A DNA stretch of 64,000 nt from Escherichia phage vB_EcoP_SP5M: sequence record NC_070869.1; one strand, 5' to 3'. Positions 27,032-64,000 of the stretch are shown here, piece after piece. Position 1 is the stretch's first letter, and every line of letters starts with the position of its first letter. A program made the position numbers and the translations under genes. The notes under the pieces are model-generated. The model searched no databases. It worked only from the letters and a program-made list of their open reading frames with translations, and was not told the DNA's origin.

Positions 27032-27104
27032 TACCCGGTAGGCTTAGTGGTAAAGCCCCACTAGTAAACCAACTAGGACGCAGGTTCGAATCCTGCCCGG
27101 GTAA
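27032..27104 (+). tRNA. tRNA, isotype undetermined (non-canonical anticodon loop)
   Basis: Acceptor TACCCGG/CCGGGTA, D arm GGCT-TAGTGGTAA-AGCC, T arm GCAGG-TTCGAAT-CCTGC; anticodon arm folds only as CTAGT/ACTAG with a 6-nt loop AAACCA (or 4-bp stem with 8-nt loop). Confidence 0.5.
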
Positions 27105-27113
27105 TCATATTAT

Positions 27114-27190
27114 GTCCGCTTAGCTTAGACTGGGAAAGCAACCGACTAATAATCGGAAGGTCACTGGTTCAAATCCAGTAGTGGACACCA
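27114..27190 (+). tRNA. tRNA with encoded CCA; anticodon loop CUAAUAA (apparent anticodon AAU)
   Basis: Acceptor GTCCGCT/AGTGGAC, D arm GCTT-AGACTGGGA-AAGC, anticodon stem CCGA/TCGG with loop CTAATAA, T arm ACTGG-TTCAAAT-CCAGT, discriminator A + CCA. Confidence 0.6.
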
Positions 27191-29145: not shown

Positions 29146-29172
29146 GCCCCTCATAGAGGGGCTTTTTTATTT
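29146..29172. terminator. bidirectional terminator between convergent plus-strand genes and the RNA polymerase gene
   Basis: Stem GCCCCTC/GAGGGGC, loop ATA; TTTTTTATTTT on plus side and TTTGCTTTT on minus side. Confidence 0.85.
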
Positions 29173-32100
29173 TAGTTTACTAAGTTCATCCAAGGGTTCA
29201 GGTTGTGAGCACGAAGCCCCTGACCAAAGCCCCATGAGTAATCCAGACTACCCTTAGCAGCAATGCTAAAGATGTTGTCCTGAATAGGTAAGCCAACGTT
29301 ACCAAACATGGTAGGAGTTGGAGCCAGCATCGCCATTGCTGCATGTACTGGGTTGTTACGAATCATGGACACTGCAACTTTTGCTGAACGAATCTTAAAG
29401 TTGTAGAACCACATTAAACCAACACTTTCCATATACCCACGGAAGCGACCCGGCAGACGGTCATAGTTAACGAACTCTTCCGTTACACGTCCCAGTGCTT
29501 CTTCACGAGTCTTACCTTTACGCTGGGTCAGTTCATCATAGATGATTGCTTTAGCGATAAAGTCAGAGTACTCAACAGTCTTCTGGATACCCTGGAACAA
29601 AGCAGTATCCTTAGTGATAAGTGCATAACGACCAGCAGTACGCACTGACTTAGGTAACTTATCAGCCAGCTTATCCATGTATTCGTGAAGTTTGCCCTCA
29701 GTAATCAGGATGTCATCACGACCGATACCAGCATCCGCAATTGAAGAGAACTCACCAGCTTCTAACAGAGGCCAGATACTCATACGCTTATGGCTATCAG
29801 TAATGGACTGAATCTCAGCCTTAAGTTTACGAATCTGGTTCGGGTTAGTAGCTGCACGTAATTCTGCTTCTGCATCTACCTGACGTAGACGAGATTTCAG
29901 GTACTGATTAATCTCAGCAGTCTTCTGTGGAATGCTCTTAGCAATGTTCTTAACCGGTACGCCACGGGCAACCATCTGGTAAAGGTTAGCCAAGAAGTTA
30001 ACAGCAGGTACGACTACTGACTTAACTACAATCAGAGTCTTAGCTTCTTTAACTAAGTTTTGAACCAGGTTCTCACCACCCATTGTGTACTTATATGCAC
30101 GGTTACCAAATACACCCAGCATAGCTTTCTTGAAGGTATCCAATGTTTCTGGGGACCAACGAGAATTACCAGACCAAGCATCCCCAACGGAAGCTGCACG
30201 ATAACCAAGTGCATCATTCAGCATGTCACGACGCACCCACAGTTCACCTTCACCGAATAAACTCTCTGCTTTCCGTCGAGTTTCACTGTTCATCAGCTTG
30301 AGAGCATCAGCAGTTACTGGGTCCAGTTTAGAACCAAGAAGATTCACATACTGGGACTTATTAGAGGCAGACATTTTAATGTCGTTCTCATACATGCTAT
30401 GCAGGTTCTCAATCAGCATATCGTTGAAGCGTTGAGCCTTAGCTTCTTCCACCTGACGACCACGCCATACACCAATTGCACGGGCAAGATGGTTCTCACC
30501 TTCAATGTGCTTCAGCATGTTAGGGTCAATGGATTGCTCATAGGCAACTACATTACCTTTATCGTCATATACTGGCAGCAGTGGTTCGTTGCCACGTTCA
30601 CCACGAGCCAGTGCTTTAGTGATACGGTCTACGGAAGGTTTGTCAGTAATACGACCAGCTACCATTGAACCTACCGTAAATCCTGTACCAAGATCTACAC
30701 CACCAGCAGTATCACGAACGTTCTGTAGGATACCCTGTGAGAATGGAGCCTGTGCCTGTACTGGTGCAAAGTAGTAGCTACGTGCTGGACCACGGTTAGC
30801 AGAGCTACCTTGATAAGTACCAAGACGTACATAGGACTTCTCAATCAAATCACCAAACTGGCTATCTTCAGCAACAATCAGATTAACACCCTGTTTAGTC
30901 TCACTAGGGATATGCCCTTTGTACTGGTTCAGAGTTGCACGTGGGTCAGACTTGGCTTTAGCCATTTCATCTTTACGCTGACCAACCAGATAAGAAGTAG
31001 CAAAGTCCATTCCATCAACTTCTGTCTGAGCCAGTGAAGATAACATTTCACGGTCAGACTTGTTCATTGCTTCCAGTGCATACAGGGTAATAAGTTTATC
31101 CAGTTGAGCTACATCTACAGTAGATCGAGCAGCCTGACGTTCACCCAGCATACGGGAGATTGCAGTAGCATTACGCAGTAGGTTATTACCAACTGTACCG
31201 TTAATCATGTACTGAGCCAGTTGCTTAGATTTACGATTAATCAGGGGCCAGTTACGACCAGCTTGTTTCTGCAAATCTGCTTCCAGCTTATTCACTTCAC
31301 GGTCAACAATCTTCTGGTCAGACAGCAGGTCACGGATTTCAGCCAGAGACATAGTATCCCGAAGAACAGCTAAGTCAGTTTTACCCATACCAGTGTGCAT
31401 TGCTTTCCACTCATCATTAGTCAGCTTACGACTGAACTTAGATGCGATAGTGGTAGGCAGATGTTCACGGAATTGCTGTCGGTCTGCTTGTACCTGTGCA
31501 CGAACTGCTTTAATCAAATCGTATACAGAAGCATTGCTCTTAGTACGACCGGTTAAGTCATTAATTAAGTCATGAAAAGGTTGCCATACCTTACCCTGGT
31601 TCATTGCTGCCATAACACCTTCAGCTACAATTGCACCATTCTTCTCTGTAGCAATAGCAGCTACCAGTTGTGCAGCATGAGCAGCACCTTTGACCAATGG
31701 GTTCTTAGTATTAGCTGCAACTTCACGAGCACTTTCTAAAGCACGAGTAGACAGTGCATCAATAGAATCCACCAGATACTGGTTAGCTCGGTCAATAGCA
31801 TTACCACTGGGAGTAGCAACGGAATCATAGAATGACTGTGCATTGAGGCTAGTCTGCATGATTGTCTGAGCCAGTGCATCCATACCTTCCTGTACGTTAG
31901 TAGCTTTGGTATCACCTGCTACACGGGCATTCAGGCTAGACATTGCAGCAGTACCAATGTTAGTCAGCATTGCATCAACGGTATTACCAGATTTCTTATC
32001 TGCTTTCATAACTGGAATGTTAGCCAGTACATTACGTACTTCTTCGCTAACCATTGCCAGACCAACAAAGGTAGGCAGTAAGGAAGAACGACCCTGTGCA

Positions 32101-35100
32101 TCAAACTCAATGTTGTTAGCACCCATGATTGTATCGAACTTCTGTTGAGCATAGTAACGGTCAGCAGGGTTAGTACTATCTGGGTCAGCCATGAATGCTT
32201 CAACGGTCAGGTTCTTAGTAACGTGTGCATAGTATTCCTGTACACGAGAAAGAGCTGCCGGACTAATAGCAGCTTCGGTAGCCAGTGCAGCAACGATATT
32301 AGTGAACAGACGTTGCTCCTGCATATTCATAGTGAAGCCATGGGCCTGAACATCACGGGTTACTTTAGTTGCATTCACTACTGCATCAGAGAACTTACCT
32401 TTACGAATTACTTGCTGTACTGGTTCAGAACCAATGTAGTTAGTAATCAGTTTATCAAAGGTCTGCCCCAACTCTTCCAGACGGGTATTGTCACCGTATG
32501 CCTTGTTATGGAACAAGGTAGTGTCCTTGGATACAGCAGCAGTAGGAGCCTGTCCACGCATAACCACAGAGGAGTTAAACAGTAAGCCAGAGAACATATC
32601 ATCTGCATTAGCAGGTGCTTTCTTGCGACCAAATACCAGACGCTTGATTGCTTCATACACAGACTGAACCATAGCTTTCAGTGCTGTGGTCTTCTTCTGC
32701 TTACCAATCAATTCACGGTTGGTTAAACCCCAAGCCATGTACTCATTCAGTGCAGCAGCTTTAGCCATTGCAGGTTCAATGAAGCCATTAGACAGGTGAC
32801 CATTAATGGTAATAAGTGCATCAGCATATGCTTCACGTACTGCCGGAGATTCGTTCTTAACATCCAGAGTACGGAACTGGTTCATCAGGTCTTCAATATT
32901 CTGGACTGCTTCATTATGAGTACCCTCGTAGTGAGCCAGTACAGATTCAAAAGTGGAAGCATGTACCAATTCATGAACCAGAGTCTCTAAGGAAGGGGTA
33001 ACTAAGTAGATGGTCTTATCATCGAAGTTAGTCCAACCATACGCATTACCTGCTTCGGCAGCTTCAATATCTTCCGGTGCTGGACGGGTAATGTTCTTCT
33101 CAATAGCATAAGCATCCAGTTGAGCAGGTGTACCGTAAACAACCTTGTAGTCTTTAGCAGCAAGAGATTTCTGTACTTCCTTCAATACTGCTTGCTGCTC
33201 AGGAGACATCTCTTTAGCCAGCTTAGTAATAGCAGTATTGGACAGCAGACGTACACCAGACTTAAGTACACGACCAACTTGTTCCATTGCTGGAATTTCT
33301 TTCACTGGTTCTGCTTTAGCAGCACGTACTGCATCACGACGCTTGTTTAATTCAGCATCAAACAGTTCGTTCAACTTAGCTACTTGCTGGTCTACAGTCA
33401 GACCTTCCAGAGAGATTTTACCGTTATTCACATAAGGAGCACCTACAGCAGCCATCTGGTCAACAGTGGTCTGCACCTGGTTCATTACTTTGTGGCGAAT
33501 ATCTACACCAAGAGCAATGTTACGCAGGTTACGTTCAATCTGTTCAGCACCTGCACGTAACAGGTCATCAGTAGCTCCCTCACGCTGGTCATATTCCAGA
33601 GCAGATTTAGCGATAGCCTGTTTGGTTTCATCAGACAGTTTGCTGAAGTCTACATTCTTCATGAACTTAGCGTAGGAGTCATAAACATTCTTGATAGGGT
33701 TACCCTGCCAAGAAGTGTATACAGCCTCGTTAGCTTTGCGACTTGCATCAGTGATGTCACTGATACCAATGTTCATACCATCAAAGATTTTCAAGGTATT
33801 CTTTGGAGCACCTTTCATAGTAGAAAGGGTCTGCATCATCATGCCATCACCAGTACCGATGGTCATAAATGGAATACCTGCAACACCTGCCTGTGAAGGA
33901 GCATAGATGCTCATTGGCACACGCATACGGTCATCTAAGTTGGTAGCCAGTACTTGGTTAGCAACATCAGTATTCTCACTACCAGCAATGTAGAAAGTCT
34001 GTGAGCCAGTCTCAATCATTGGAGCCAGTGGAGATAAAGATTCCTGGATTTCATTCAGTTCTTTCTGTGTTAAGAAATCACCCTTCTTCCAGGTTGAGTC
34101 TTTTTCTTTTTCTGCCAGCTTAGCCTGTACTGCTTGCTGGAACATATCCTGCAATACCAGAGACTGAATCTGGGTAGCCTTCTGCAAGTTCTCAGTAGAG
34201 TGCATCAGACCTTCACCAACAGTATTACGGATACCAGTACGCATTGGTTCAACGAACAGGTAGAGCATGTTCTCTTGTAAGTTCTTCAGGGCATTACCGG
34301 ATACGGTAAATTTCTGAGGGTTTAACTTACCAGTCAGAGCACCATCTACTTGCTGAATAGACAACTCACCTTTACGCACAACTGGAACATTGCCAGTCAG
34401 TGCTTCCATAGAAGTAAGGAAAGTATCCAGCATAGCCTGAGCATCAGCCTCAGACGCAGCCTCCTTACCAAACATTGCCATAGCTGGGGAAATGCTAGGG
34501 TCAGCAGCCCGTGCTTGCAGAACGTCACTGAGGCGTTCATAGATGGTGTCAGTAATTGCACTAACCATCTTACCAGCAATACCACGAGCACCAGAACCAT
34601 AGATGGTAATGGTCAGTGGGTTTTTGGCGATACCACGTTTCAGGTCCAGAGTACCGTCTTCATTCAGGTTGAAGTCTTTAATGAACAAGTCCATTAACTT
34701 CTGAAGATGGTTCATCTGGCTCATAACTGGAACGTTGTTACGGTAAGTAGTACGTAACTCATTCAGGGCTTGTTGCAGACCATTGGTAGATGCTTCATAC
34801 AGGTCAACACTGTCATCCTGTGAACGATGCTCGTTCATAGTCTTACCAGCTTTACCAAAGAACAAACCACCCTTAGCAGTATTCTTAATCCAGTCTGGAG
34901 TGAACTTACCACCAGTCATTAATACCATTGCGTTGATTGGGCCGTTAGTTACACCATCAGCTTCAACGTACAGTGGAGTATTAAAGTTGGCACGGTCATC
35001 GCTGTTCAGGTAACGAGCATATTCCATCAGAGCCATGAGAGCCACGAAGGATTTGTCACCACCCAGAGAAGTCTTCAGGATATCTACTGCATCAGCAGGT

Positions 35101-38100
35101 AAGTGACCAGACTTATCGAACTCAACCATCATATCAACAGCTGGCTTCAGATTGCCTTCCAGAGCCTTGGTCAGCTTTTCAGACATAGCCTCACGGGACA
35201 TGTTATGTACCTTGATGCCCAATGCCTGAGCCAGTCCTAGCTGGAAGTCAGAGTACGCTTGGCTGTTTTCATTACTTAAGTCGATAGTAGAGAAGGTCGG
35301 CAGAATTGCTTCACGAACCAGTTTACTGGATTGTGGGTTGTTCTTACCAAGCATCTGCATACGGCCTACACGAGTCATGTTGTAACTGTAGTGAATAGGA
35401 GTATCCAGTCCATTCTCTTGTTCTCGTATCTGATTAATTACACCGAACAGAGAATCATATGCCATAGACACGGACAGGTTTTTACCTTCCAGAGATTTAG
35501 CAGTGTTCTCATTCAGTAAGTCAGGATTAAGAGTACCAGCACCCATCAGTTCCAGAATGTTGTCACGGCCTAATGCTTCATAGAAGTTAACCATCGGCAT
35601 ATGTACACGGAACTCAGTAGCCTGTTCAGCTTTCAGAGCAGCTTTCTGCTCAGGGGTATTTTTAACAGCAGGATTACGTAACTGAGTTTGAGCCACGGAA
35701 GGAATGTCATCACCGAAGTACATTTTCTCTTCCGGATTTACCAGCACAGCTTCCTCAATTGCTGTAGGGAAATCATTAATAGGGTCTTTATCTGCCAGCT
35801 TATTAATGGTGTACAGACCAACAGTCTTATTAGAGTCTGGGTCAATCTCAGACACATCCAGCATAGTCTCAGTAACTGCACCCATCTCAATGAGAGAAGA
35901 CAGAATCTCTGTAGCCATTGCCATTGGGATACCTTTTGTATATCCCAAAGGTGCATTAGGATTGCGATTTAAACCCCAGTAGGATTCAATCTTCTGAGCC
36001 AGTGAGCTAGTAGCTTCAACCAGAGTCTGGGCATTCTCAAACTCAGCCAGAATACTTTCTGGTAACAGAGATGCTTCTACACCAGTAATAGCAGCTACAT
36101 CTTTCATATCTTTAATAGCAGCATTCTGTGTAGCAGTCAGTCGCCATTGCAGACCAGCAAGCACAGCAGTCTCTAACAACTGGTCATTGAACTTAAAGGT
36201 ATCACCATCTCGTTCAACGATATTCAGCAGTTTGCCACCTACCCAACGATTAGCCTCAGTACCTTCTGCAAAACGTTTACCAACATTTTTGTTAGCAAGG
36301 AACTTAGCCAGTCGTTCAGACAGAGTAGTCTTCAGAGTTTCCCCAAAGTCCATCAAGTCCTGATAACGTTTCATCACATCACTGGTGAGAGCGTTATTTT
36401 CTTTTTGAGTGAATGCTTCAAAGCGAGCAGCAGAAGACAGTGCTTGCTTAATATCAGTCAAAGGAGATTCAGAACCAATGGTACGGGACTTAGGTTCTTC
36501 TGGTAGGGTAAATGCTTTCAGGAACTGGTTCGGTGTCTTTTCATTGTTATAGACAGGGAACACTGTTTCCATTTCTGTTTTGGTTTCGACTACTTCCTGG
36601 GTAGCATCTACTGTTTCAGATTCAGTAGTAGAGACTTCTTCTGCTTTTGGACTAGTCTCCTTAGTAGGAGCAGTCTTATTTTCTACCACTGGTTTAGATT
36701 TAGGCTGTACAGTAGTAGTGTCCTCTTGCACTGGTGCAGGAGATTCATCAACCTGATTCACTGGTTCATTGGTCTGTTGGGATTGAGCAGCATCAAGACT
36801 GCCCTGACGGAACTCTTTAACTACCTGAGCAGCAGGCTTGTTCAGACGTGGATCCAACGAGGTAACTTTCACATGAGAAACATTAAGCTCCGGGTAAGCC
36901 GTAGCAAGTGCATTAGCAATATCAGCTACGGTTTTGGCCTCCAGTCCTACTTGCTGGGCAAACTTAACAGACTTGGTATCATAAGGATTGACACCGAGAC
37001 CAGTACGACTACGTACCCATTCACGGGAAGGCGAGAGAGCCTGATAATGAACAGACTTATTCTTATCCGCATTCCCAGAAATCAGATGCTCATTCAACGC
37101 TCCGACCTTATTCTGCATGTGCTGGGCGAACTTCATAAAGTCGCTCAGATAAGCGGAGGCCAAATCGAAGTTACCAGAGTTATACGCAGAACGAATGCGT
37201 TTCGCATGTTGCAACGCAGAGTACTGTCCTTCGTTAGAACGAGACTCGTCGGTTTTAATCTGTTTACTAACAATGTCTTGAGGACGTAAGCCTAGTTCTT
37301 CTGCTTTAGCGTCGAACTCACGTGCACCCTGTAATAAGGCAGCAGCCGATTGCAGGGCAGCACGTTGACGATTCCCCAGTGTAATCTTACCTTCACTTGC
37401 ATGTTTCAGAACCATGTTCACTGAATCTGCGTCCAGTACTTCTGGAGACACATCAGCAGCCATAGCAATGTTGTTTGCTTGGGCTTGGTTAGCTTCTTCA
37501 GTAGCTTTCAGCTTACCTGCTTCAGCCTGTTCCTGAATCATGGAATGGATAGCACGGAATGCACGGAGTACTTTAGGGGTATTCTGTACGTTAGCCATCA
37601 GACCGGAGAACTGGTCTACGATAGTAGCAGCAGGGGAACCTTGTTCCAGATTAGCCAGAGCACCTGGGTCACGGTTAATGAAGCTATCCATAGACATGAT
37701 GTTGTCATACATCTGGATTGCAGCTTCCATTTGAACGTTAGGGTCTTCGGCAGTATTAACCAGGTCAGCCATCTTCTGAATAGCTTCTACACGGTTAGTG
37801 GAACCAGAAACAGCTTCACGGATTACTGGGTTAGCTTGTTCCAATTCTACTGGGTCAAACTTCATTGCCTGAGTTAAGTCAGCAGCATACTGAGTAGCAG
37901 CAGCTTTCTCTTCTGGAGTGATATCCATTGCATCTACTGCTTCCTGTACAGTTGCTTGTGCTTGCTCTGCCTGAGCAGCAGCTTCCTGTGCAGCAGCGTT
38001 AACCGTAGCATCAGCTACAGGGGATGCTTGTTCATTACGCTTAGCAACTTCTTCACCACGTTGAACCAGGATGTTAGTAAGAGGAGATGCAGCTTTTGCT

Positions 38101-39503
38101 AATGTTTTACCAACCAGAGAAGCACCAGCCAGAGTAGTACGAAGAGCAGGACCAGCAGCAGCTCCGGCAGCTTTAACAGTTGCACCTGGAGCTTGAGCAA
38201 CCCCAGCACTACCGAAGCCATAAAGTGCACCAAGACCTGCTTGCTCACCAACCCCTTTGAGAGTGTCACGGGATGCATCAACATTTTCCTTGATTGCACG
38301 GTTCTGGGCATACTGACCAAAGCCTGACTGAATACCTTCCTCTACAGTCTCACGAAGCATATTAGAACCAGCACCTGCCAGTGAACCTACCTTAAGTGGA
38401 TTAAGTTCAAACTTGGATACCAGTGGACCAGTAGCAGCAGCAACTGGGGCAGTTAAGCCAGCAGCAATGATACCTGTTTCGGATGCAGTCTGACGACGTG
38501 CTTCATCAGGAGATAATCCATCAGCAATATGTTGTTGGTAAACAGGAGATTTACTTGCCAGTTCTTGATGAGGCATCTTCATGATTTCAGAAGCAGTCTG
38601 TTGGTATGCACCACCAGCTTCCATACCACCGATTGCAATAGCAGGTGCAGCAACACGACCAGCAGACAATGCAACCTGTGCAGGACGTGAACCTAACTCA
38701 GCAGCTAAGGTAATACCCTTAACAGCTTTATCCCCTCCTACCATTACTTTACCGAGTGCAGATACACCACGGATAAGTGGACCACCAGTAAAGAGGGAAC
38801 CAACACCTTCACTCAGTCCATCGGAGGCAGCCATACCATTATCAAGTGTATTAGCAACAGAATCGAAAGCATCACGACCAATGCGGGACAAGGAGGCAAC
38901 CAAATCGCTCTCCCCGTTTTTGATGTCTTGTTCATAAAGTTTCTGGTTCTTTTGAGCAGAAATCTGGTTCTGATTCTGAACAACTTTACGGGTAGCATTC
39001 AGTGCATCAGACTGTAAATTGTGTACACCTTCATTCAACCAATCCATCCCGGAAGCAATGGATGCCCCGGCATTATCATTGACCAGACCTGTGCCAAGAG
39101 CAGCAATGCCCCCAAGGGTATTAGCAACACCAAGACCAACACCAGAAAGAGTATCGCCAAATGCTTCTGCGTTAGTACGTTGTTTAGATAAGTCCTGACG
39201 TACAGCATCAGCAGCATTAGCTCGGCTATTAAGAATTTGTAGACCCTGCTCATTACCGTATTTATTAATGATTTCTAAGGGGGAGGCTTGAGTGAAATCT
39301 GCCTGAAGTGAACCTGGTTCGAATGCACCGATTCCAAGATTACCTACTCGTCCGGTCTGGAGATTGTAAGCATTCTCTGGGGTTAATTGGAAAGGGCTTT
39401 GCCCTTGTGCAGCTTGCTTCTGAGAGGTTGCAGTAGAGACATCGACTTGCTTAGCATTAGTGATGCTGTCTGCGAAACCTGCCAGACGGTCAAATGTTGA
39501 CAT
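29172..39503 (-). CDS. virion RNA polymerase (giant, N4 vRNAP-like)
   Basis: 3,443 codons from ATG 39503 (AGGAAA RBS; track start 39521 is TTG); size typical of N4-like virion RNAP; T7-like motif B with identical spacing R-x3-K-x7-YGS (RGIAKNPLTITIYGSG). Confidence 0.85.
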   Translation of the reverse strand: MSTFDRLAGFADSITNAKQVDVSTATSQKQAAQGQSPFQLTPENAYNLQTGRVGNLGIGAFEPGSLQADFTQASPLEIINKYGNEQGLQILNSRANAADAVRQDLSKQRTNAEAFGDTLSGVGLGVANTLGGIAALGTGLVNDNAGASIASGMDWLNEGVHNLQSDALNATRKVVQNQNQISAQKNQKLYEQDIKNGESDLVASLSRIGRDAFDSVANTLDNGMAASDGLSEGVGSLFTGGPLIRGVSALGKVMVGGDKAVKGITLAAELGSRPAQVALSAGRVAAPAIAIGGMEAGGAYQQTASEIMKMPHQELASKSPVYQQHIADGLSPDEARRQTASETGIIAAGLTAPVAAATGPLVSKFELNPLKVGSLAGAGSNMLRETVEEGIQSGFGQYAQNRAIKENVDASRDTLKGVGEQAGLGALYGFGSAGVAQAPGATVKAAGAAAGPALRTTLAGASLVGKTLAKAASPLTNILVQRGEEVAKRNEQASPVADATVNAAAQEAAAQAEQAQATVQEAVDAMDITPEEKAAATQYAADLTQAMKFDPVELEQANPVIREAVSGSTNRVEAIQKMADLVNTAEDPNVQMEAAIQMYDNIMSMDSFINRDPGALANLEQGSPAATIVDQFSGLMANVQNTPKVLRAFRAIHSMIQEQAEAGKLKATEEANQAQANNIAMAADVSPEVLDADSVNMVLKHASEGKITLGNRQRAALQSAAALLQGAREFDAKAEELGLRPQDIVSKQIKTDESRSNEGQYSALQHAKRIRSAYNSGNFDLASAYLSDFMKFAQHMQNKVGALNEHLISGNADKNKSVHYQALSPSREWVRSRTGLGVNPYDTKSVKFAQQVGLEAKTVADIANALATAYPELNVSHVKVTSLDPRLNKPAAQVVKEFRQGSLDAAQSQQTNEPVNQVDESPAPVQEDTTTVQPKSKPVVENKTAPTKETSPKAEEVSTTESETVDATQEVVETKTEMETVFPVYNNEKTPNQFLKAFTLPEEPKSRTIGSESPLTDIKQALSSAARFEAFTQKENNALTSDVMKRYQDLMDFGETLKTTLSERLAKFLANKNVGKRFAEGTEANRWVGGKLLNIVERDGDTFKFNDQLLETAVLAGLQWRLTATQNAAIKDMKDVAAITGVEASLLPESILAEFENAQTLVEATSSLAQKIESYWGLNRNPNAPLGYTKGIPMAMATEILSSLIEMGAVTETMLDVSEIDPDSNKTVGLYTINKLADKDPINDFPTAIEEAVLVNPEEKMYFGDDIPSVAQTQLRNPAVKNTPEQKAALKAEQATEFRVHMPMVNFYEALGRDNILELMGAGTLNPDLLNENTAKSLEGKNLSVSMAYDSLFGVINQIREQENGLDTPIHYSYNMTRVGRMQMLGKNNPQSSKLVREAILPTFSTIDLSNENSQAYSDFQLGLAQALGIKVHNMSREAMSEKLTKALEGNLKPAVDMMVEFDKSGHLPADAVDILKTSLGGDKSFVALMALMEYARYLNSDDRANFNTPLYVEADGVTNGPINAMVLMTGGKFTPDWIKNTAKGGLFFGKAGKTMNEHRSQDDSVDLYEASTNGLQQALNELRTTYRNNVPVMSQMNHLQKLMDLFIKDFNLNEDGTLDLKRGIAKNPLTITIYGSGARGIAGKMVSAITDTIYERLSDVLQARAADPSISPAMAMFGKEAASEADAQAMLDTFLTSMEALTGNVPVVRKGELSIQQVDGALTGKLNPQKFTVSGNALKNLQENMLYLFVEPMRTGIRNTVGEGLMHSTENLQKATQIQSLVLQDMFQQAVQAKLAEKEKDSTWKKGDFLTQKELNEIQESLSPLAPMIETGSQTFYIAGSENTDVANQVLATNLDDRMRVPMSIYAPSQAGVAGIPFMTIGTGDGMMMQTLSTMKGAPKNTLKIFDGMNIGISDITDASRKANEAVYTSWQGNPIKNVYDSYAKFMKNVDFSKLSDETKQAIAKSALEYDQREGATDDLLRAGAEQIERNLRNIALGVDIRHKVMNQVQTTVDQMAAVGAPYVNNGKISLEGLTVDQQVAKLNELFDAELNKRRDAVRAAKAEPVKEIPAMEQVGRVLKSGVRLLSNTAITKLAKEMSPEQQAVLKEVQKSLAAKDYKVVYGTPAQLDAYAIEKNITRPAPEDIEAAEAGNAYGWTNFDDKTIYLVTPSLETLVHELVHASTFESVLAHYEGTHNEAVQNIEDLMNQFRTLDVKNESPAVREAYADALITINGHLSNGFIEPAMAKAAALNEYMAWGLTNRELIGKQKKTTALKAMVQSVYEAIKRLVFGRKKAPANADDMFSGLLFNSSVVMRGQAPTAAVSKDTTLFHNKAYGDNTRLEELGQTFDKLITNYIGSEPVQQVIRKGKFSDAVVNATKVTRDVQAHGFTMNMQEQRLFTNIVAALATEAAISPAALSRVQEYYAHVTKNLTVEAFMADPDSTNPADRYYAQQKFDTIMGANNIEFDAQGRSSLLPTFVGLAMVSEEVRNVLANIPVMKADKKSGNTVDAMLTNIGTAAMSSLNARVAGDTKATNVQEGMDALAQTIMQTSLNAQSFYDSVATPSGNAIDRANQYLVDSIDALSTRALESAREVAANTKNPLVKGAAHAAQLVAAIATEKNGAIVAEGVMAAMNQGKVWQPFHDLINDLTGRTKSNASVYDLIKAVRAQVQADRQQFREHLPTTIASKFSRKLTNDEWKAMHTGMGKTDLAVLRDTMSLAEIRDLLSDQKIVDREVNKLEADLQKQAGRNWPLINRKSKQLAQYMINGTVGNNLLRNATAISRMLGERQAARSTVDVAQLDKLITLYALEAMNKSDREMLSSLAQTEVDGMDFATSYLVGQRKDEMAKAKSDPRATLNQYKGHIPSETKQGVNLIVAEDSQFGDLIEKSYVRLGTYQGSSANRGPARSYYFAPVQAQAPFSQGILQNVRDTAGGVDLGTGFTVGSMVAGRITDKPSVDRITKALARGERGNEPLLPVYDDKGNVVAYEQSIDPNMLKHIEGENHLARAIGVWRGRQVEEAKAQRFNDMLIENLHSMYENDIKMSASNKSQYVNLLGSKLDPVTADALKLMNSETRRKAESLFGEGELWVRRDMLNDALGYRAASVGDAWSGNSRWSPETLDTFKKAMLGVFGNRAYKYTMGGENLVQNLVKEAKTLIVVKSVVVPAVNFLANLYQMVARGVPVKNIAKSIPQKTAEINQYLKSRLRQVDAEAELRAATNPNQIRKLKAEIQSITDSHKRMSIWPLLEAGEFSSIADAGIGRDDILITEGKLHEYMDKLADKLPKSVRTAGRYALITKDTALFQGIQKTVEYSDFIAKAIIYDELTQRKGKTREEALGRVTEEFVNYDRLPGRFRGYMESVGLMWFYNFKIRSAKVAVSMIRNNPVHAAMAMLAPTPTMFGNVGLPIQDNIFSIAAKGSLDYSWGFGQGLRAHNLNPWMNLVN

Positions 39504-39561
39504 AGCATGTTTCCTGTTCAAACTTATATCGTATATAGGTAACTTACTCTACAGTAAGCCA

Positions 39562-53089: not shown

Positions 53090-53298
53090 AGGGACTTTCT
53101 CAGGTTAGTTAAGTCATAATTGACTAAAACAGTCTACCTAATGACTTGTTTGTGGTACAACAAAAACCCTCCCCAACAGTCTAGCTGGGCTGGTTAGTAC
53201 CTAAAATATTGAACAATAAATCTGTCTACAACAAAGCCTACAAGGAGGCAATGAGCCACCGATGGACTTCGACGACGACATTCCGTTCTGATGAAGAA

Positions 53299-53314
53299 AG
53301 GGCCATGCGGCCCT
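53299..53314. terminator. hairpin in the 338-bp intergenic region, possible terminator
   Basis: Stem AGGGCC/GGCCCT with ATGC loop; T-rich on both flanks. Confidence 0.35.
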
Positions 53315-53426
53315 TTTGATTATGATGATAACAGCTCTATAATCTTTTTAACCAGTTCAGCCACGTATCTGAACCAGATTACAAATGGCGGTTCGGTCGG
53401 TTCTGTTTCACCTTCTATTTTCACCC

Positions 53427-59327: not shown

Positions 59328-60917
59328 TCACACGATGTATGAACGCAGTGGATTAACACTTTCTTCCTCTTCATCATCCCACATCGGGTCACCCTTGTTA
59401 TCCACCATGGTCATACCTGCTTGTGGTTTCCAAGGATTGAGATAACCCAGCATGGAAATAGTATCAATACAGTCATCCTTACCTTTGATTCCATTAATGG
59501 TAGCTAGTTTAATCTGGCCTATGAACAGACCCATGATAGTTGTATCTCTCAACTCTTCCGGGAAGTACATCTTACCAGCTTTGAACCAAGGAACTACCAG
59601 GTTAAAGCGTGACAGCTTAGAGGTTACAGGACGGATGCCTGGCTTACCACCCTCAGAGGTAGCAAAGTTAAAGAAGACATTACGGTTAATCATTTCTTTC
59701 TGAAGGAGTGAGATGAATCCATTCTGTTGTCCTGTAATTTCGACACCAACATTTTGTGGTTGGTATTCCTGAACCAGACGGAACAAGTCGTCGAAGTTCT
59801 TGTCCATAAGCTGACGATTAGCCACACCATCAACCCAGAACCAATCTCCATTAGAACTGTAAGCCCAAACTGATATGACACTGTAGTCACTGGTCTGTTT
59901 CTCCGAAGTAGCAAAGTCAGTTGTAATGTAATAGTTGTAGCAGGACTTCATCCTTAATAGTTGCTGCCTGCTGTACCATTTAATCTCACTATCCTGAACA
60001 AGACGTTCATCTTCAGAACTAATACGAAGCATAAGTTCTTGGTAGAAACCAGCCAACTTACCAGTCTTAACTGCCATATCGTATTGTGCTTTGATATAGT
60101 CATAGGAGAAACGGTCATCCCATGCACCCTGAAACTCTTCCCTACTACAAGGAAACTTCTCACACACAGGCCATACGTTGACATCCCATGCACCAGACTC
60201 AACTGCTTCAATGATAATGTCTTCCTTATTAAAGGGAGTACCGTTGAAGATTACTTTACGACGTGTTGGGTCGAGAGCATGGTTCACACCTTTATAGACA
60301 GTATCCTTAATAGCTTCCATGCTTGTCTTAGAGTTAGCATCACCGTCACTAATCAAGTCATCCAGTACACATAGTGTTGGACGCTTACCATATATCTTCG
60401 TACCACGAAGACCTGTCTTAGCACCAAATAACTTAACACCAAGTCGATGACCTTCTGCATTACGGAACTCTAACAGGTTATCCGTAAAAGTAGCTTCAGG
60501 TATCCACTGCTGAAGGAACTCACTATTCTTGTAACGGAACTCAATGTTCTTACGTGCAGACTTAGCACCGTTATCCATTGAGTCAGATACGTAAATCATT
60601 CCCTCTACCTTACCTAAACTAGGTAAGTGTCCAAACACTGCCAAGAATAAAGTAAAGTATTCCATGAACACAGCAGTCTTACCTGCACCACGGAAACACA
60701 GATTAACTACATACTGGTTCGGGGTAATCATCTTGTCCAACATCTTCAGGTGAACCGGAGGTGTTTTGTTGGATTCACCCTCTTTGCCATTAACCAACTT
60801 AATAAAGTTGGCAAAGGTAAGAGCAAACTGACTAGGAACATAGTTAGAAGAATTAAGGTGGGAGTAGTCCACCTGGTCTAGCCATTCATCTAGTTCCTGT
60901 TTAATTAACTCAGACAT
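59328..60917 (-). CDS. terminase large subunit
   Basis: Walker A CFRGAGKTAV, Walker B-like CVLDDLISD; start set to ATG 60917 (ATGTCTGA overlap with upstream stop; track start is GTG). Confidence 0.8.
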   Translation of the reverse strand: MSELIKQELDEWLDQVDYSHLNSSNYVPSQFALTFANFIKLVNGKEGESNKTPPVHLKMLDKMITPNQYVVNLCFRGAGKTAVFMEYFTLFLAVFGHLPSLGKVEGMIYVSDSMDNGAKSARKNIEFRYKNSEFLQQWIPEATFTDNLLEFRNAEGHRLGVKLFGAKTGLRGTKIYGKRPTLCVLDDLISDGDANSKTSMEAIKDTVYKGVNHALDPTRRKVIFNGTPFNKEDIIIEAVESGAWDVNVWPVCEKFPCSREEFQGAWDDRFSYDYIKAQYDMAVKTGKLAGFYQELMLRISSEDERLVQDSEIKWYSRQQLLRMKSCYNYYITTDFATSEKQTSDYSVISVWAYSSNGDWFWVDGVANRQLMDKNFDDLFRLVQEYQPQNVGVEITGQQNGFISLLQKEMINRNVFFNFATSEGGKPGIRPVTSKLSRFNLVVPWFKAGKMYFPEELRDTTIMGLFIGQIKLATINGIKGKDDCIDTISMLGYLNPWKPQAGMTMVDNKGDPMWDDEEEESVNPLRSYIV

Positions 60918-61599
60918 CTGTAATGTCCTCATCTGCACGTACTAGTTTAGAACCAGCAATCTCTTTAGTGGGTACACCACTATTGATTGCATTAATTTGC
61001 TGTTCGGCTAATGCAGCAAGTGTTGCCTTGAGGTCAGTCAACCCGGAGTTCTCCCTTAAGTCCAGATTAATATTCGTTACCTGGTCTTTCGGTTTAGCTA
61101 AATGAGTAAGGATAGAGTTAGCTGCATCACATCTTACTTTCTCACTAGCTGCTGTAGTCATCAGTTCAACCTGAACATTGATTGCCTTCTGATAATTGTC
61201 TTGGTTCACAATCCACACTGGAACCAAACTTTGTTCCATGATGAGGTTAACTAACTTACCCCTGTGATAAGCAGATACATAAGCACTAATATCTTTCTCA
61301 CTGGTTCCTCGTGCTATAAGTTCTGCTTGTCGGTTAGGGAATGTTTTGAAGTAGGCTTCCTTATTTGAATAGCCCATGTGTTTGTAAGTGACATACTGAA
61401 CTGCATTCATGTAGTCCTGTGTCTTAAACTTACCCTCCTTCATAACACCAGAGTAAGAGATGAAGTTTTCACGGAATGCTTCAGCAACTAGTTGGTCTTG
61501 GGTTATGTTGTTAATTGTGTCTACCAACTCTTGGCTAACACTGTTCTTGAAGTTAGCAGGTAAGGCATTAATGATCTGCTGCTTAGTTAGCTCACTCAT
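60910..61599 (-). CDS. hypothetical protein upstream of terminase (possible small terminase subunit)
   Basis: First gene of the minus-strand late block; product assignment positional only. Confidence 0.4.
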   Translation of the reverse strand: MSELTKQQIINALPANFKNSVSQELVDTINNITQDQLVAEAFRENFISYSGVMKEGKFKTQDYMNAVQYVTYKHMGYSNKEAYFKTFPNRQAELIARGTSEKDISAYVSAYHRGKLVNLIMEQSLVPVWIVNQDNYQKAINVQVELMTTAASEKVRCDAANSILTHLAKPKDQVTNINLDLRENSGLTDLKATLAALAEQQINAINSGVPTKEIAGSKLVRADEDITDV

Positions 61600-61782
61600 A
61601 CTTATCTCTCTACAAAGTTATGTCTATTAACGAAGATTCTTTTCTTGGGGTGAGATACCCCTTGAAGAAACCATACCATACAGTTACACTTTAGTCATGA
61701 TATAGAAAAAGTTCATGATACTAAATAGTATGTAATGTTCCGATGACCTTATTCCCCAAGGAGTACTACCTTGAGACTCTTT

Positions 61783-62061
61783 ATGAGATGTCTAGACTCT
61801 GAAGATAAATACGCAGAGATAGACCACACAGCATCAGGATTCCTGAAGGGTGACATCATTGTTACCCACAACTGGGATACATTCCATGAGTTGTCTGGAA
61901 TGATGCTATTAGAGAACCGTCCCGGTGTTACCATCTTAGAACCACAAGAAACTTACTCTTTAGAAAAGTCTAGTTCAGCTCTTGTGTTCTTTACAAAATT
62001 ACCTCATAGTGTCTCCATCAAACGAAGCAAAGACAGCGTTCGGATGACGGTGACGATGTGA
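61783..62061 (+). CDS. small protein, member A of HE-G-LFL paralog family
   Basis: ATG 61783 (track start is TTG); motif WDTFHELSGMMLLENRPGVTILEP shared with three downstream genes. Confidence 0.4.
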   Translation: MRCLDSEDKYAEIDHTASGFLKGDIIVTHNWDTFHELSGMMLLENRPGVTILEPQETYSLEKSSSALVFFTKLPHSVSIKRSKDSVRMTVTM

Positions 62062-62209
62062 TTAGTCATACCGCCTAGTAGACAGTGGCGGTACTCGTAA
62101 AGAGTTAATAACTTCTACAGTCAGGGTTACCCGGCTCCTTTCCTACCTAGTAGGCTAACGATACACATGTATCTAGGGTGATGAACTGGCCCGTGATTGA
62201 AAACGGTAA

Positions 62210-62245
62210 GGGGTAGAGTCGAGAGACTCTACCCCATTTCTTTTT
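62210..62245 (+). terminator. Rho-independent terminator
   Basis: 11-bp stem GGGGTAGAGTC/GACTCTACCCC, loop GAGA, followed by ATTTCTTTTT. Confidence 0.85.
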
Positions 62246-62261
62246 CTGGGGGTATGTAATT

Positions 62262-62660
62262 ATGAGCATCTACTGTTTTGACATTGATATTACTGGTGTA
62301 CTACGCGGTCAAGAACCCAATTACCTTGGGGAACCAGAAGTAGTAAGTAAGTTCATCGCTTCATGGCAATCAGTATTCTTACCTGATTGTGACGAGTCTC
62401 ATGAGGTTATTGGCTCTCTTTTCTTATCCAACCTTCAGCTTAACACTGAGATACTTACTGAACCAAAAGTATATGATCTCACTCAGTACAGCAAGTTCAA
62501 CAAGTTCTTCCCCGGTGTACGCTTCTATAAGATAGATGGTTGGGAATTGATAGCTGACCATAACGTATTTAATAAGACACTTTCCATTTACTTCAGACCC
62601 ATTCCTAAAGGAAGGAGAATCAATCATGAAATTCATAATGACTATCCCCAGTTTTGTTAA
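62262..62660 (+). CDS. small protein, member B of HE-G-LFL paralog family
   Basis: ATG with GGGGG upstream; motif CDESHEVIGSLFLSNLQLNTEILTEP. Confidence 0.5.
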   Translation: MSIYCFDIDITGVLRGQEPNYLGEPEVVSKFIASWQSVFLPDCDESHEVIGSLFLSNLQLNTEILTEPKVYDLTQYSKFNKFFPGVRFYKIDGWELIADHNVFNKTLSIYFRPIPKGRRINHEIHNDYPQFC

Positions 62661-62940
62661 AGGGGAGTCCATGTACACAAATGACTTCACTTTAGAAGAG
62701 GTCATGAATAGTAGCCCCCAACGCGTAATCCTGGTTCCTACCTTAGAGGATTATCACGAAGTAAGAGGTCAACTTTTCTTAGCAGGTAATGACCGTAAGG
62801 TTGTATGTATTGTCCCACCTTCCGTCTACTCCTTTAGCGATGCATATGACGCTCTACCTTTCATGATGGTATCCGATGAATACCAATGGGATAGTCGCCA
62901 TGAGAATGACGAATACCGTTACTATTACGTAAGGAAGTAA
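62626..62940 (+). CDS. small protein, member C of HE-G-LFL paralog family
   Basis: Strong RBS AAGGAGGAG; motif LEDYHEVRGQLFLAGNDRKVVCIVPP; overlaps gene B by 35 nt. Confidence 0.5.
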   Translation: MKFIMTIPSFVKGESMYTNDFTLEEVMNSSPQRVILVPTLEDYHEVRGQLFLAGNDRKVVCIVPPSVYSFSDAYDALPFMMVSDEYQWDSRHENDEYRYYYVRK

Positions 62941-62943
62941 GCC

Positions 62944-63258
62944 ATGCACTTCTACGGTTTAAGTAGTCGTAGTACCTGTCCCCTTAATCTGGGGGTAGGT
63001 AAATCTCCTTGGTTGGGAATAAGTAAACCCATGACCATGTACTATGAACAATGTGAAAAAGCAGATGAGTTCATCGGAACCTGTTTAATGTTAGGTGCAC
63101 CTATTACCTTTATTAGGATAGATACTTCCATTGAAGTTCCGGAGGGTGTCGCTGTATACATCTTCTCCTCCTGTGAACCTATGGTAGCTACTACTCTTAC
63201 AGGTAGACTCATTACCCTTTATCCTTCCTCATATTTATCTAGCGACGAGAGCTATTAA
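62944..63258 (+). CDS. hypothetical small protein
   Basis: ATG with AAGGAAG RBS; 104 codons; family motif not evident. Confidence 0.45.
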   Translation: MHFYGLSSRSTCPLNLGVGKSPWLGISKPMTMYYEQCEKADEFIGTCLMLGAPITFIRIDTSIEVPEGVAVYIFSSCEPMVATTLTGRLITLYPSSYLSSDESY

Positions 63259-63542
63259 TGGTTATCAGTAAAATTTATTCAGAGCTACCCGGGGATGAAT
63301 ACACCCATCATAAAGATGTAGCTAACCTAGATGCATATGTACTTATCCTGGTTCCAGATGAACAGTCCTTACATGAACTACAGGGCTTACTCTTCTTACA
63401 CAATAAGAAATCCGAAGTACATCTGCTTGAACCAGGAACACCAATGTCCTGGCAAGGTAGCTTCAGTCCTTGGCATCTTAATACAGACAAGTACATCCTA
63501 TCCTTCGAGGGTAACACCCCCATCTATAAGGAAAGACAATGA
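63258..63542 (+). CDS. small protein, member E of HE-G-LFL paralog family
   Basis: ATG overlapping upstream stop; motif DEQSLHELQGLLFLHNKKSEVHLLEP. Confidence 0.5.
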   Translation: MVISKIYSELPGDEYTHHKDVANLDAYVLILVPDEQSLHELQGLLFLHNKKSEVHLLEPGTPMSWQGSFSPWHLNTDKYILSFEGNTPIYKERQ

Positions 63543-63581
63543 AACTAAACATCCCCCCATATCTGGTACAGGTACTGAAGC

Positions 63582-63920
63582 ATGAACGTTAAACTCTTAG
63601 GTATGCGTGGTACTGACTTACTGCACTACTCTTCTGAACCAGAGAAAGCAATCATCCACCTTATGTCCTATGGGGATTCCACACTAATAATGGAACCAGG
63701 AGAGTTAGCAGACTTTGCACAAGGACATAAGATTCTTACTAACAGCAATGCAAAGATAGTTATCTTGCAAAATGGTGAGTCAGCCTTCATCTTATTAGGT
63801 GATTATGCTCATGTGTTTATTAAAGATGCTGCCGTAAGACATAGTAGTGGTAACCCTAACCATCCTGACTATTACTCTGGCATAGCTCGTATTATCACCC
63901 GAATCTCACCTCCTATTTAA
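63582..63920 (+). CDS. hypothetical small protein
   Basis: ATG start, 112 codons. Confidence 0.45.
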   Translation: MNVKLLGMRGTDLLHYSSEPEKAIIHLMSYGDSTLIMEPGELADFAQGHKILTNSNAKIVILQNGESAFILLGDYAHVFIKDAAVRHSSGNPNHPDYYSGIARIITRISPPI

Positions 63921-64000
63921 CTGCTTATATGTGAGATAGTTATGATATTTTTGCATACCAATTTGGTCATAGCTATGTCTAGCTGTAGTGGTGTGGCTAG

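Follow-up and report, generated by a model that had tools for sequence, protein, structure and literature searches.

A likely internal regulatory region between the gp69 and gp70 homologs of the N4-type phage vB_EcoP_SP5M, and a candidate structured RNA beside it

Results

Genes and layout at the junction

Two groups of genes diverge near the right side of a 64,000-nucleotide stretch of Escherichia phage vB_EcoP_SP5M (NC_070869.1; hereafter, the window). On the minus strand lies a homolog of gp69 of phage N4 (60910 to 61599; 229 amino acids; ATG at 61599), the rightmost gene of the leftward late block. On the plus strand lies a homolog of gp70 (61771 to 62061; 96 amino acids; TTG start), followed at 62262 to 63920 by homologs of gp71, gp71.1, and gp71.2 and by two more small genes, recognized from open reading frames, the annotation of relatives, and profile searches. 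Between gp69 and gp70 is a divergent intergenic region of 171 bp (61600 to 61770), the homolog of the N4 gp69/gp70 gap.

The gp69 homolog shares 76 to 77% protein identity with N4 gp69 and with its KP8 and JZBo1 homologs, and matches PHROG 2109 (E = 4.5e-105). A profile search found no Pfam match for this protein, which some records name the small terminase subunit. The gp70 homolog matches PHROG 7213 (E = 2.8e-42; profile positions 1 to 95 of 96), and its counterparts in PhAPEC5 and G7C are annotated as similar to N4 gp70. The initial annotation had started this gene at ATG 61783. We find TTG 61771 to be the most likely start because the Shine-Dalgarno sequence AAGGAG (61758 to 61763) lies 7 nt upstream of it, because the ATG start codons of N4 and KP8 align with it, and because position 1 of the PHROG 7213 profile matches residue 1 of the TTG-started frame. 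The start of the minus-strand gene at 61599 stands as first placed; with the plus-strand start at 61771, the gap shrinks from about 180 bp to 171 bp.

The gap has a GC content of 35.1%, compared with 43.7% for the window, and only 0.36% of the 171-nt windows in the 64 kb are as low. A matching gap of 160 to 183 bp is present in N4 (NC_008720; 68895 to 69054), G7C (70042 to 70224), KP8 (70064 to 70236), JZBo1, Mimir124, and PhAPEC5. The AT-rich divergent junction first noticed at the edge of the late block is thus a real feature and not a product of chance. No regulatory feature is annotated in the gap in the records of these six phages that we inspected.

Judged by homology, the window comes from a G7C-like N4-type phage (Gamaleyavirus; family Schitoviridae, subfamily Enquatrovirinae). 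Its ends match 57 phage records at 80 to 95% identity, almost all of them Gamaleyavirus. Position 1 corresponds to approximately 8.45 kb in the Mimir124 genome and 8.53 kb in that of G7C; by homology, the window opens approximately 8.5 kb inside the genome and closes with the first 7 bases of the right terminal repeat. Since it starts about 8.5 kb in, and since its last seven bases are those that start the G7C repeat, the window is a canonical left-to-right genome minus the early region and the right repeat; on the same alignments, it is not a permuted contig.

Genes are on the plus strand up to approximately 29.1 kb and on the minus strand from there to 61599, with the small plus-strand genes beyond. 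The leftward block that ends with gp69 includes the open reading frame of the virion RNA polymerase (29172 to 39521, minus strand; 3449 amino acids). Cumulative GC skew peaks near 29 kb, at the switch in gene orientation, and shows no separate feature at the junction.

In N4, gp69 on the minus strand is followed by the rightward genes gp70 to gp72 and then by the genome end. G7C, KP8, Mimir124, and PhAPEC5 have the same right-end layout but more small genes. The earlier statement that late and early blocks occupy opposite ends of N4-type genomes is therefore imprecise: the late block stops short of the right end, and gp70 and the genes after it intervene. Nor are the small plus-strand genes early genes; they are the homologs of gp70, gp71, gp71.1, and gp71.2. 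The annotations of N4 and its relatives already contain this gene layout, and what is new at the junction is only the set of predicted promoter elements and the conservation of an inverted repeat, both described below.

Part of the gap is more conserved than the genes around it. We aligned the gap across five lineages: Gamaleyavirus, the IMG/VR lineages L016 and L017, N4, and Kaypoctavirus (KP8 and JZBo1). The left half (61600 to 61694) is 77% identical to N4 and 74% to KP8, compared with 71% for gp69 coding DNA and 49 to 60% for gp70 and gp71, and the core (61617 to 61694) is approximately 79% identical to its N4-type counterparts. From left to right, the alignment shows a conserved block, a variable stretch of 17 nt, the invariant sequence TTA[C/G]ACTTTAG (61684 to 61694), and weaker conservation until the gp70 ribosome-binding site.

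Promoter candidates in the gap

The conserved part of the gap includes a predicted sigma-70-type promoter for gp70 on the plus strand (61662 to 61690), with the -35 element TTGAAG (61662 to 61667), a 17-nt spacer, and the -10 element TACACT (61685 to 61690); the predicted transcript start is near 61697. In a position-weight scan, this element ranked first among rightward candidates in each of the six lineages, its counterparts being TTGCAG-17-TAGACT in N4, TTGAAT-17-TAGACT in L017, and TTGAAG-17-TAGACT in KP8. The spacer measures 17 nt in each of the 11 distinct versions of the element, which carry nine different spacer sequences. The main evidence for the promoter is this pattern, conserved, variable, and conserved again around a spacer of invariant length, which fits a sigma-70 promoter. 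As a sequence match only, the site agrees with the sigma-70 definition (hexamers like TTGACA and TATAAT set 16 to 18 nt apart) and keeps the key A2 and T6.

Scored by itself, the site does not stand out. Its promoter score of 10.5 ties for sixth and seventh place among the seven sites in the window that score at least 10.5, most of which are inside genes. Shuffled sequence gives approximately 22 such sites, and the score alone is therefore not significant. A consensus scan omitted the site because it matches 8 of 12 positions and the cut-off was 9; by that scan, sigma-70-like sites are depleted in the window (three found, 8.2 expected). The initial suggestion of key promoters at the junction is plausible through the conserved TTGAAG-17-TACACT element, but the type would be ordinary sigma-70, not hairpin.

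For the leftward direction, a weak candidate late promoter for gp69 lies on the minus strand at 61688 to 61716 (-10 TAAAGT, complement of 61688 to 61693; -35 ATGAAC, complement of 61711 to 61716). Counterparts occur at the same place, as TTGTAA-17-TAAAGT in N4 and KP8 and TTGTAT-17-TAAAGT in L017, and the -10 is inside the invariant block TTA[C/G]ACTTTAG. Other candidates are ATGACT-17-TATGGT, from the scan, and AAGAAT (61636 to 61641) and TAACTT (61615 to 61620), picked out by eye. At least four candidates make the leftward promoter ambiguous; TAAAGT is the best conserved of them. This -10 overlaps the rightward -10, so that polymerase could occupy only one of the two promoters at a time.

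We rejected the idea that the junction motifs belong to a reiterated family of middle or late promoters: GATTCTTTTCTTGGGG, TTACACTTTAGTCATGATA, TTAGACTTTAG, and TTTAGAC are unique to the junction in searches of the window and N4. Comparison by eye found no motif common to the junction and other late intergenic regions. The motif AAGACCTG, which we take to be that of N4 middle promoters, matches exactly at four places in N4, each of them on the plus strand and within the left 36 kb.

In N4, the host sigma-70 polymerase transcribes the late genes, using weak promoters that resemble sigma-70 sites; middle transcription is restricted to the left half of the genome, and in the right half the late transcripts are read leftward (PMC4496689). 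The N4 literature that we found does not describe the polymerase class of the rightward right-end genes gp70 to gp72. In place of the host enzyme, N4 RNA polymerase II could transcribe gp70. The late start sites of LUZ7, a distant N4-like phage, are those of the host polymerase, and fewer than 20% of them are on the plus strand (PMC9163698). By analogy, this is a precedent for rightward late starts, and not evidence for them in SP5M.

A conserved inverted repeat beside the rightward promoter

The best-conserved DNA in the region is an imperfect inverted repeat at 61635 to 61669 (GATTCTTTTCTT-GGGGT-GAGAT-ACCCC-TTGAAGAA), which abuts the rightward -35 and is unique in the window. Its inner hairpin, GGGGT-GAGAT-ACCCC (61647 to 61661), has a 5-bp stem and a 5-nt loop. 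The sequences flanking the hairpin, GATTCTTTTCTTGGG (61635 to 61649) and CCTTGAAGAA (61660 to 61669), are nearly invariant in five lineages. The loop varies (GAGAT, GAGTT, GGGTT, or TAGC), and the Kaypoctavirus stem is weaker (GGGT..ACC). In L017, a C-to-A change at 61639 is paired with a G-to-T change at 61667, which fits TTCTT/AAGAA pairing in the outer arms; this is a single event, and its G-to-T change is also inside the -35.

The hairpin is not a terminator, since there is no T-run after the stem on either strand; T-rich sequence precedes it and A-rich sequence follows. It is likewise absent from a terminator scan of the window. Possible pairing between the loop and the gp69 ribosome-binding site was treated as chance; it is not kept in N4. 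A pattern scan of viral contigs for the junction block returned more than 120 stretches, almost all of them chance; no additional lineage remained once the list was filtered. Just downstream of the rightward -10, the direct repeat TCATGATA occurs twice on the plus strand (61695 to 61702 and 61713 to 61720), each copy with the palindrome TCATGA. It is present in Gamaleyavirus and L016 and absent from L017, N4, and KP8.

The inverted repeat probably serves as a control site at the DNA level or belongs to the gp69 leader. Its flanks are better conserved than its pairing, which favors a DNA-level site overlapping the rightward -35 over an RNA hairpin in the leader. Under the RNA alternative, the leftward late mRNA of gp69 and terminase would carry the repeat as a stem-loop close to its 5′ end, and this stem-loop would stabilize the transcript or control its translation. 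A leftward start near 61681 would put the hairpin approximately 20 to 35 nt into such a leader, Gamaleyavirus, L017, and N4 retain the stem under four different loops, and the paired change in L017 maintains the match between its outer arms. That change is, however, the only compensatory event. Folding is modestly favored on the plus strand (z = -2.3) and no better than shuffles on the minus strand (z = -0.9), the best KP8 fold lacks the hairpin, and the Kaypoctavirus stem has only two to four pairs and is better paired on the plus strand. We consider an RNA role unlikely on this balance, with the DNA-level site as the preferred reading.

A site for packaging (terminase recognition) or for the start of replication is less probable still. 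The conserved block is unique, AT-rich, conserved above the coding level, and equipped with an inverted repeat, and it adjoins gp69 and gp68 (terminase). Against this, its distance to the terminal repeat varies from approximately 0.7 to 3 kb among relatives, the lineages have no iterons or repeats in common, the cumulative GC skew has no separate feature at the junction, and the block-spacer-block pattern fits a promoter.

Hairpin promoters and genome ends

Hairpin early promoters for the virion RNA polymerase had been expected near the junction; the sequence does not bear this out. The promoter core GCTCCGC has no match in the whole 64-kb window. In G7C, the core occurs at 92, 506, 1231, and 5224, always on the plus strand and upstream of gp1, gp1.1, gp2, and gp15; these are four copies in the left 5.3 kb, compared with 0.46 expected by chance in the 12-kb locus searched. 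The G7C right repeat holds two further copies. The promoters proposed for KP8 have the form NNNGC-TCC-GCNNN-T.TGG (PMC6950046, Table 1), and in N4 the hairpin promoters are restricted to the left end, which is injected first, with the early promoters of N4 in the left 10% of the genome (PMC4496689). By homology, the junction is approximately 62 kb from that end.

The search for conserved hairpins upstream of the small genes, as first proposed, does find the hairpin at 61647 to 61661, but its 5-nt loop and its flanks are not those of a virion polymerase promoter. Hairpins with a 3-nt loop and a stem of at least 5 bp in 61000 to 64000 have only unrelated loops (ACC, ATT, CTA, and AAG). That the hairpin at 61647 to 61661 is a virion polymerase promoter driving the small rightward genes as early genes is thus highly improbable: hairpin promoters do operate in N4-type phages (PMC4496689), and the stem is GC-rich, 5 bp long, and set in an AT-rich gap upstream of small genes, but the loop has 5 nt (4 in N4 and 6 in KP8) and not 3, the core GC-TCC-GC and the TTATGG start of the G7C and KP8 promoters are missing, the T-rich and A-rich flanks are on the wrong sides in either orientation, N4 early promoters keep to the left tenth of the genome, and the N4 copy of the hairpin is absent from the three mapped N4 early promoters.

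It had also been proposed that the junction corresponds to the genome termini, a terminal repeat, or a permutation point. This fails, because the homologous gap is internal and single-copy and the repeat is placed by homology at 63994. The last seven bases of the window (63994 to 64000, plus strand) are, by homology, the first seven of the right direct terminal repeat. Here the window sequence ...GTAGTGGTG/TGGCTAG aligns with ...GTAGTGGTG/TGACAGGGG of G7C, and it is with TGACAGGGG that the G7C genome begins, at base 1, as does the right repeat annotated in it. The repeat annotation of Mimir124 begins within 3 nt of the point that matches 63994. The SP5M repeat would therefore start approximately 2.2 kb to the right of the junction.

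Annotated repeats measure 1160 bp in G7C (1 to 1160 and 71758 to 72917, with the junction at 70042 to 70224) and 403 bp in Mimir124 (72366 to 72768); the N4 repeat is approximately 390 to 440 bp. For KP8, terminal repeats of 404 bp have been reported (PMC6950046). The junction itself occurs at one place per record in the complete genomes of N4, G7C, KP8, and Mimir124. By homology, then, the physical ends are elsewhere and the junction is internal, and the promoters that appear to be present there are of ordinary sigma-70 type.

Equally improbable is a junction that forms a physical end, a repeat boundary, or the opening point of a circularly permuted assembly: on a circular map, the rightward genes past it do continue into the early genes, and the gap is where some database records are split (the ATG of gp69 is exactly where Bas96 begins, and OZ035740, OZ035810, and OZ035750 break at window position 61629, 29 nt upstream of the gp69 start), but the annotated or reported repeats of G7C, Mimir124, and KP8 lie 1.5 to 3 kb farther right than the junction, the linear N4 record stops 1.1 kb beyond its own on that side, the left-end sequence of G7C aligns at 63994, and each complete genome has the junction once. 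The ends of OZ035750 abut without overlap, which indicates that the break is a chosen starting point, not a repeat; the start of Bas96 is likewise a choice of the record and not an end. An N4-type assembly that is opened at the gp69 start is no indication of a genome end at that place. One false lead is thereby removed, the junction being neither a genome end nor the holder of a virion polymerase promoter.

A structured RNA between gp70 and gp71

The gap between gp70 and gp71 (62062 to 62261) is 200 nt long, compared with 210 nt in N4 and 256 nt in KP8. Within it we found a conserved structured RNA of approximately 175 nt on the plus strand (62070 to 62246). It consists of hairpin P1 (62070 to 62092), hairpin P2 of variable length (62093 to 62105), a multi-stem 3′ domain (62106 to 62209) that starts with the single-stranded linker UAAUAAC.., and an intrinsic terminator (62210 to 62235) with a T-run to 62246. 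The terminator was identified in the terminator scan; it is strong and has both the GC-rich hairpin and the T-run by which intrinsic terminators are defined. When 12 distinct sequences were folded independently, most gave one common layout of stems: P1, P2, the linker, two hairpins enclosed by a closing stem, one more hairpin, and the terminator just before the gp71 ribosome-binding site.

We built a covariance model from Gamaleyavirus-side sequences only. It finds the KP8 clade at E-values of 2.5e-6 to 1.3e-4 and N4 at 5e-4, with one full-length match per genome. Pairing holds in 93.2% of cells, compared with 26 to 46% when partners are slid; the alignment was fitted to the model structure, which favors it, but the margin is large. 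In the same model-based alignment, 15 of the 24 pairs change on both sides, and the covariation score is 0.659, compared with 0.277 in shuffles and reached by none of 500 of them. G-U pairs are seen on the plus strand only. From a plain MAFFT alignment that combined the two clades, RNAalifold retrieved nothing beyond P1 and the terminator, and the covariance-model alignment was therefore needed. Every lineage has an invariant CUCC in the junction loop of the RNA. In KP8, L020, and L016, P2 carries insertions with ACCUCCUUA or CCUCCUUA, the sequence of the 3′ end of 16S rRNA; in some lineages the copy is exact.

Rfam has no match (E ≤ 1) over 62070 to 62246 or its counterparts in N4, KP8, L016, and L017; matches to mir-279 and RAGATH-7 were rejected as weak chance hits far below their gathering scores. 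The covariance-model search did not find the RNA in more distant contigs that bear gp69. A pattern of P1 plus linker occurs in 18 stretches of viral contigs, seven of them new, and these seven have no covariance-model match and were set down to chance. A leader peptide was also considered, since the window, N4, and KP8 share, in frame, a reading frame that begins GTG GCG G.. and closes with TAA TAA. This peptide was rejected in favor of RNA structure because the frame runs on in L019 and JZBo1 and because the changes in the stems rewrite the peptide. A kink-turn or box C (GUGAUGA) was rejected as well, the motif not being kept in L016.

We put at about even the chance that this is a real, functional, and so far undescribed family of structured RNAs. 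Most obviously, it might serve gp71 and the downstream genes as an attenuator-type leader or be a small RNA derived from a 3′ end; it could bind Shine-Dalgarno sequences as a small RNA or represent a new phage attenuator-type leader.

Discussion

We consider it likely that the gap at 61600 to 61770 is an internal regulatory region, homologous to that between N4 gp69 and gp70, from which transcription diverges in both directions. Rightward, the host RNA polymerase would most likely start near 61697 from the predicted sigma-70-type promoter, and the transcript would cover gp70 and the structured RNA and end, at least in part, at 62210 to 62235. Termination there would make gp71 and the later genes dependent on read-through. 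Leftward, the last late promoter should be located in the gap and drive gp69 and the terminase gene. If TAAAGT is a real leftward -10, then the two promoters would compete for polymerase. The inverted repeat, abutting the rightward -35, would probably act either as a DNA-level control site or as part of the gp69 leader. In this account, the homology, the internal position, the lack of hairpin promoter cores, the pattern of conservation, and the covariation of the RNA are observed, whereas the polymerase, the start sites, the promoter competition, and the role of the repeat are inferred.

The junction may even be a switch, with overlapping and mutually exclusive divergent promoters controlled through the inverted repeat; we regard this as less likely than the structured RNA family. 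If there is such a switch, its rightward arm would yield a structured RNA of approximately 175 to 245 nt, conserved across Enquatrovirinae, including N4. More generally, the conserved sigma-70-like promoter leads to a testable proposal, namely that the host polymerase reads the gp70 to gp72 arm. The junction finding itself is ordinary. The RNA between gp70 and gp71, common to N4, G7C-like, and KP8-like phages and absent from Rfam, is the most useful by-product of the analysis and a lead worth following up.

The junction can be compared with several known systems. Like the N4 promoters P1 to P3 and their G7C and KP8 homologs, it has a short GC-rich DNA hairpin in an N4-type genome. Unlike it, these promoters have a 3-nt loop, the core GC-TCC-GC, and a TTATGG start approximately 11 nt downstream, and they lie in the left 5 to 6 kb and inside the terminal repeat. 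The genome type, with direct terminal repeats, is that of other N4-like phages, and the single-copy SP5M junction lies 2.2 kb to the left of the repeat of its own genome.

For the RNA between gp70 and gp71, the class to compare is that of terminator-ended leader RNAs of the riboswitch or attenuator type, together with phage antitermination RNAs such as HK022 put. It differs from them in matching no Rfam family and in that no ligand, protein partner, or alternative antiterminator pairing has been identified for it. It resembles them in having a terminator directly before the ribosome-binding site of the next gene and two adjacent 5′ hairpins.

Late transcription in N4 reads leftward morphogenesis genes, using the host polymerase at weak sigma-70-like sites (PMC4496689), and the gap should hold the rightmost promoter of this kind. 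In contrast to these promoters, the best sigma-70-like site of the junction points rightward, away from the late genes. Among the relatives, Gamaleyavirus and L016 differ from the other lineages by extra bases and by the duplication of TCATGATA downstream of the -10. The distance from junction to repeat is 2.2 kb in SP5M, which has more small genes, and 0.7 to 1.1 kb in N4. The closest counterparts remain the gp69/gp70 gaps of N4, G7C, KP8, and other Enquatrovirinae, which have the same flanking genes, the same orientation, the same hairpin position, and the same geometry of -35, 17-nt spacer, and -10.

A conserved structured RNA between the gp70 and gp71 homologs

The interval between the gp70 and gp71 homologs holds a conserved structured RNA (62070-62246, plus strand), which ends in a terminator at 62210-62235. 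Several of its stems covary. We found this RNA in N4, Gamaleyavirus, Kaypoctavirus, and two IMG/VR lineages, and it matched none of the Rfam families against which it was compared. In the phage KP8 (L004, a Kaypoctavirus; about 2010-2030) and in the compared sequences L020 and L016, hairpin P2 contains insertions that carry ACCUCCUUA or CCUCCUUA, a sequence that matches the 3' end of 16S rRNA exactly. The junction loop of the multi-stem domain retains CUCC in all lineages; in the window, this loop lies at 62130-62140 and reads GGCUCCUUUCC.

Promoter-like sites and repeats around the junction

Matches to sigma-70-like promoters are rarer than expected throughout the window. A score of 10.5 is reached by 7 sites, compared with about 22 in shuffled sequence, and a consensus scan of 60800-64000 returned 3 matches against 8.2 expected. 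This depletion is consistent with selection against stray promoters for the host polymerase.

Immediately 3' of the predicted rightward -10 element, TCATGATA occurs twice as a direct repeat (61695-61720), with the copies 18 bp apart and the palindrome TCATGA in both. Two copies are present in Gamaleyavirus and in the IMG/VR lineage L016; the repeat is absent in L017 (also from IMG/VR), N4, and KP8.

In two more distant contigs that carry gp69 (L026 and L024), this gene lacks the divergent gp70 arrangement, and AT-rich sequence of the TATATATAG type lies upstream of it on the same strand. In L026, a terminator-like hairpin lies directly before it.

Other noncoding features and tRNA genes

The minus-strand late block is interrupted by 337 bp without a called ORF (53090-53426). 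Within this stretch are a plus-strand site, TTGATT-16-TATAAT (53316-53343), which ranks among the window's strongest sigma-70-like matches, and a minus-strand hairpin with a T-run. Elsewhere, two tRNA genes lie side by side on the plus strand (27032-27190). One encodes tRNA-Ile with the anticodon AAT, which is unusual, and the other has no anticodon call.

Record ends and physical ends

Four public Gamaleyavirus records, PQ850623.1 (Bas96), OZ035740.1, OZ035810.1, and OZ035750.1, are linearised within the junction; the cut lies at the start codon (ATG) of gp69 or 29 nt upstream of that codon. No terminal overlap was found in OZ035750.1, the one record checked. The ends of these entries could be mistaken for physical ends.

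The window closes with 80 bases of noncoding sequence (63921-64000) that is also conserved in G7C and Mimir124. Promoter-like sites at 63917-63946 (plus strand) and 63970-63942 (minus strand) lie just before 63994, where the homolog of the physical left end of G7C (TGACAGGGG) begins. Thus, 7 bases of the right terminal repeat fall inside the window.
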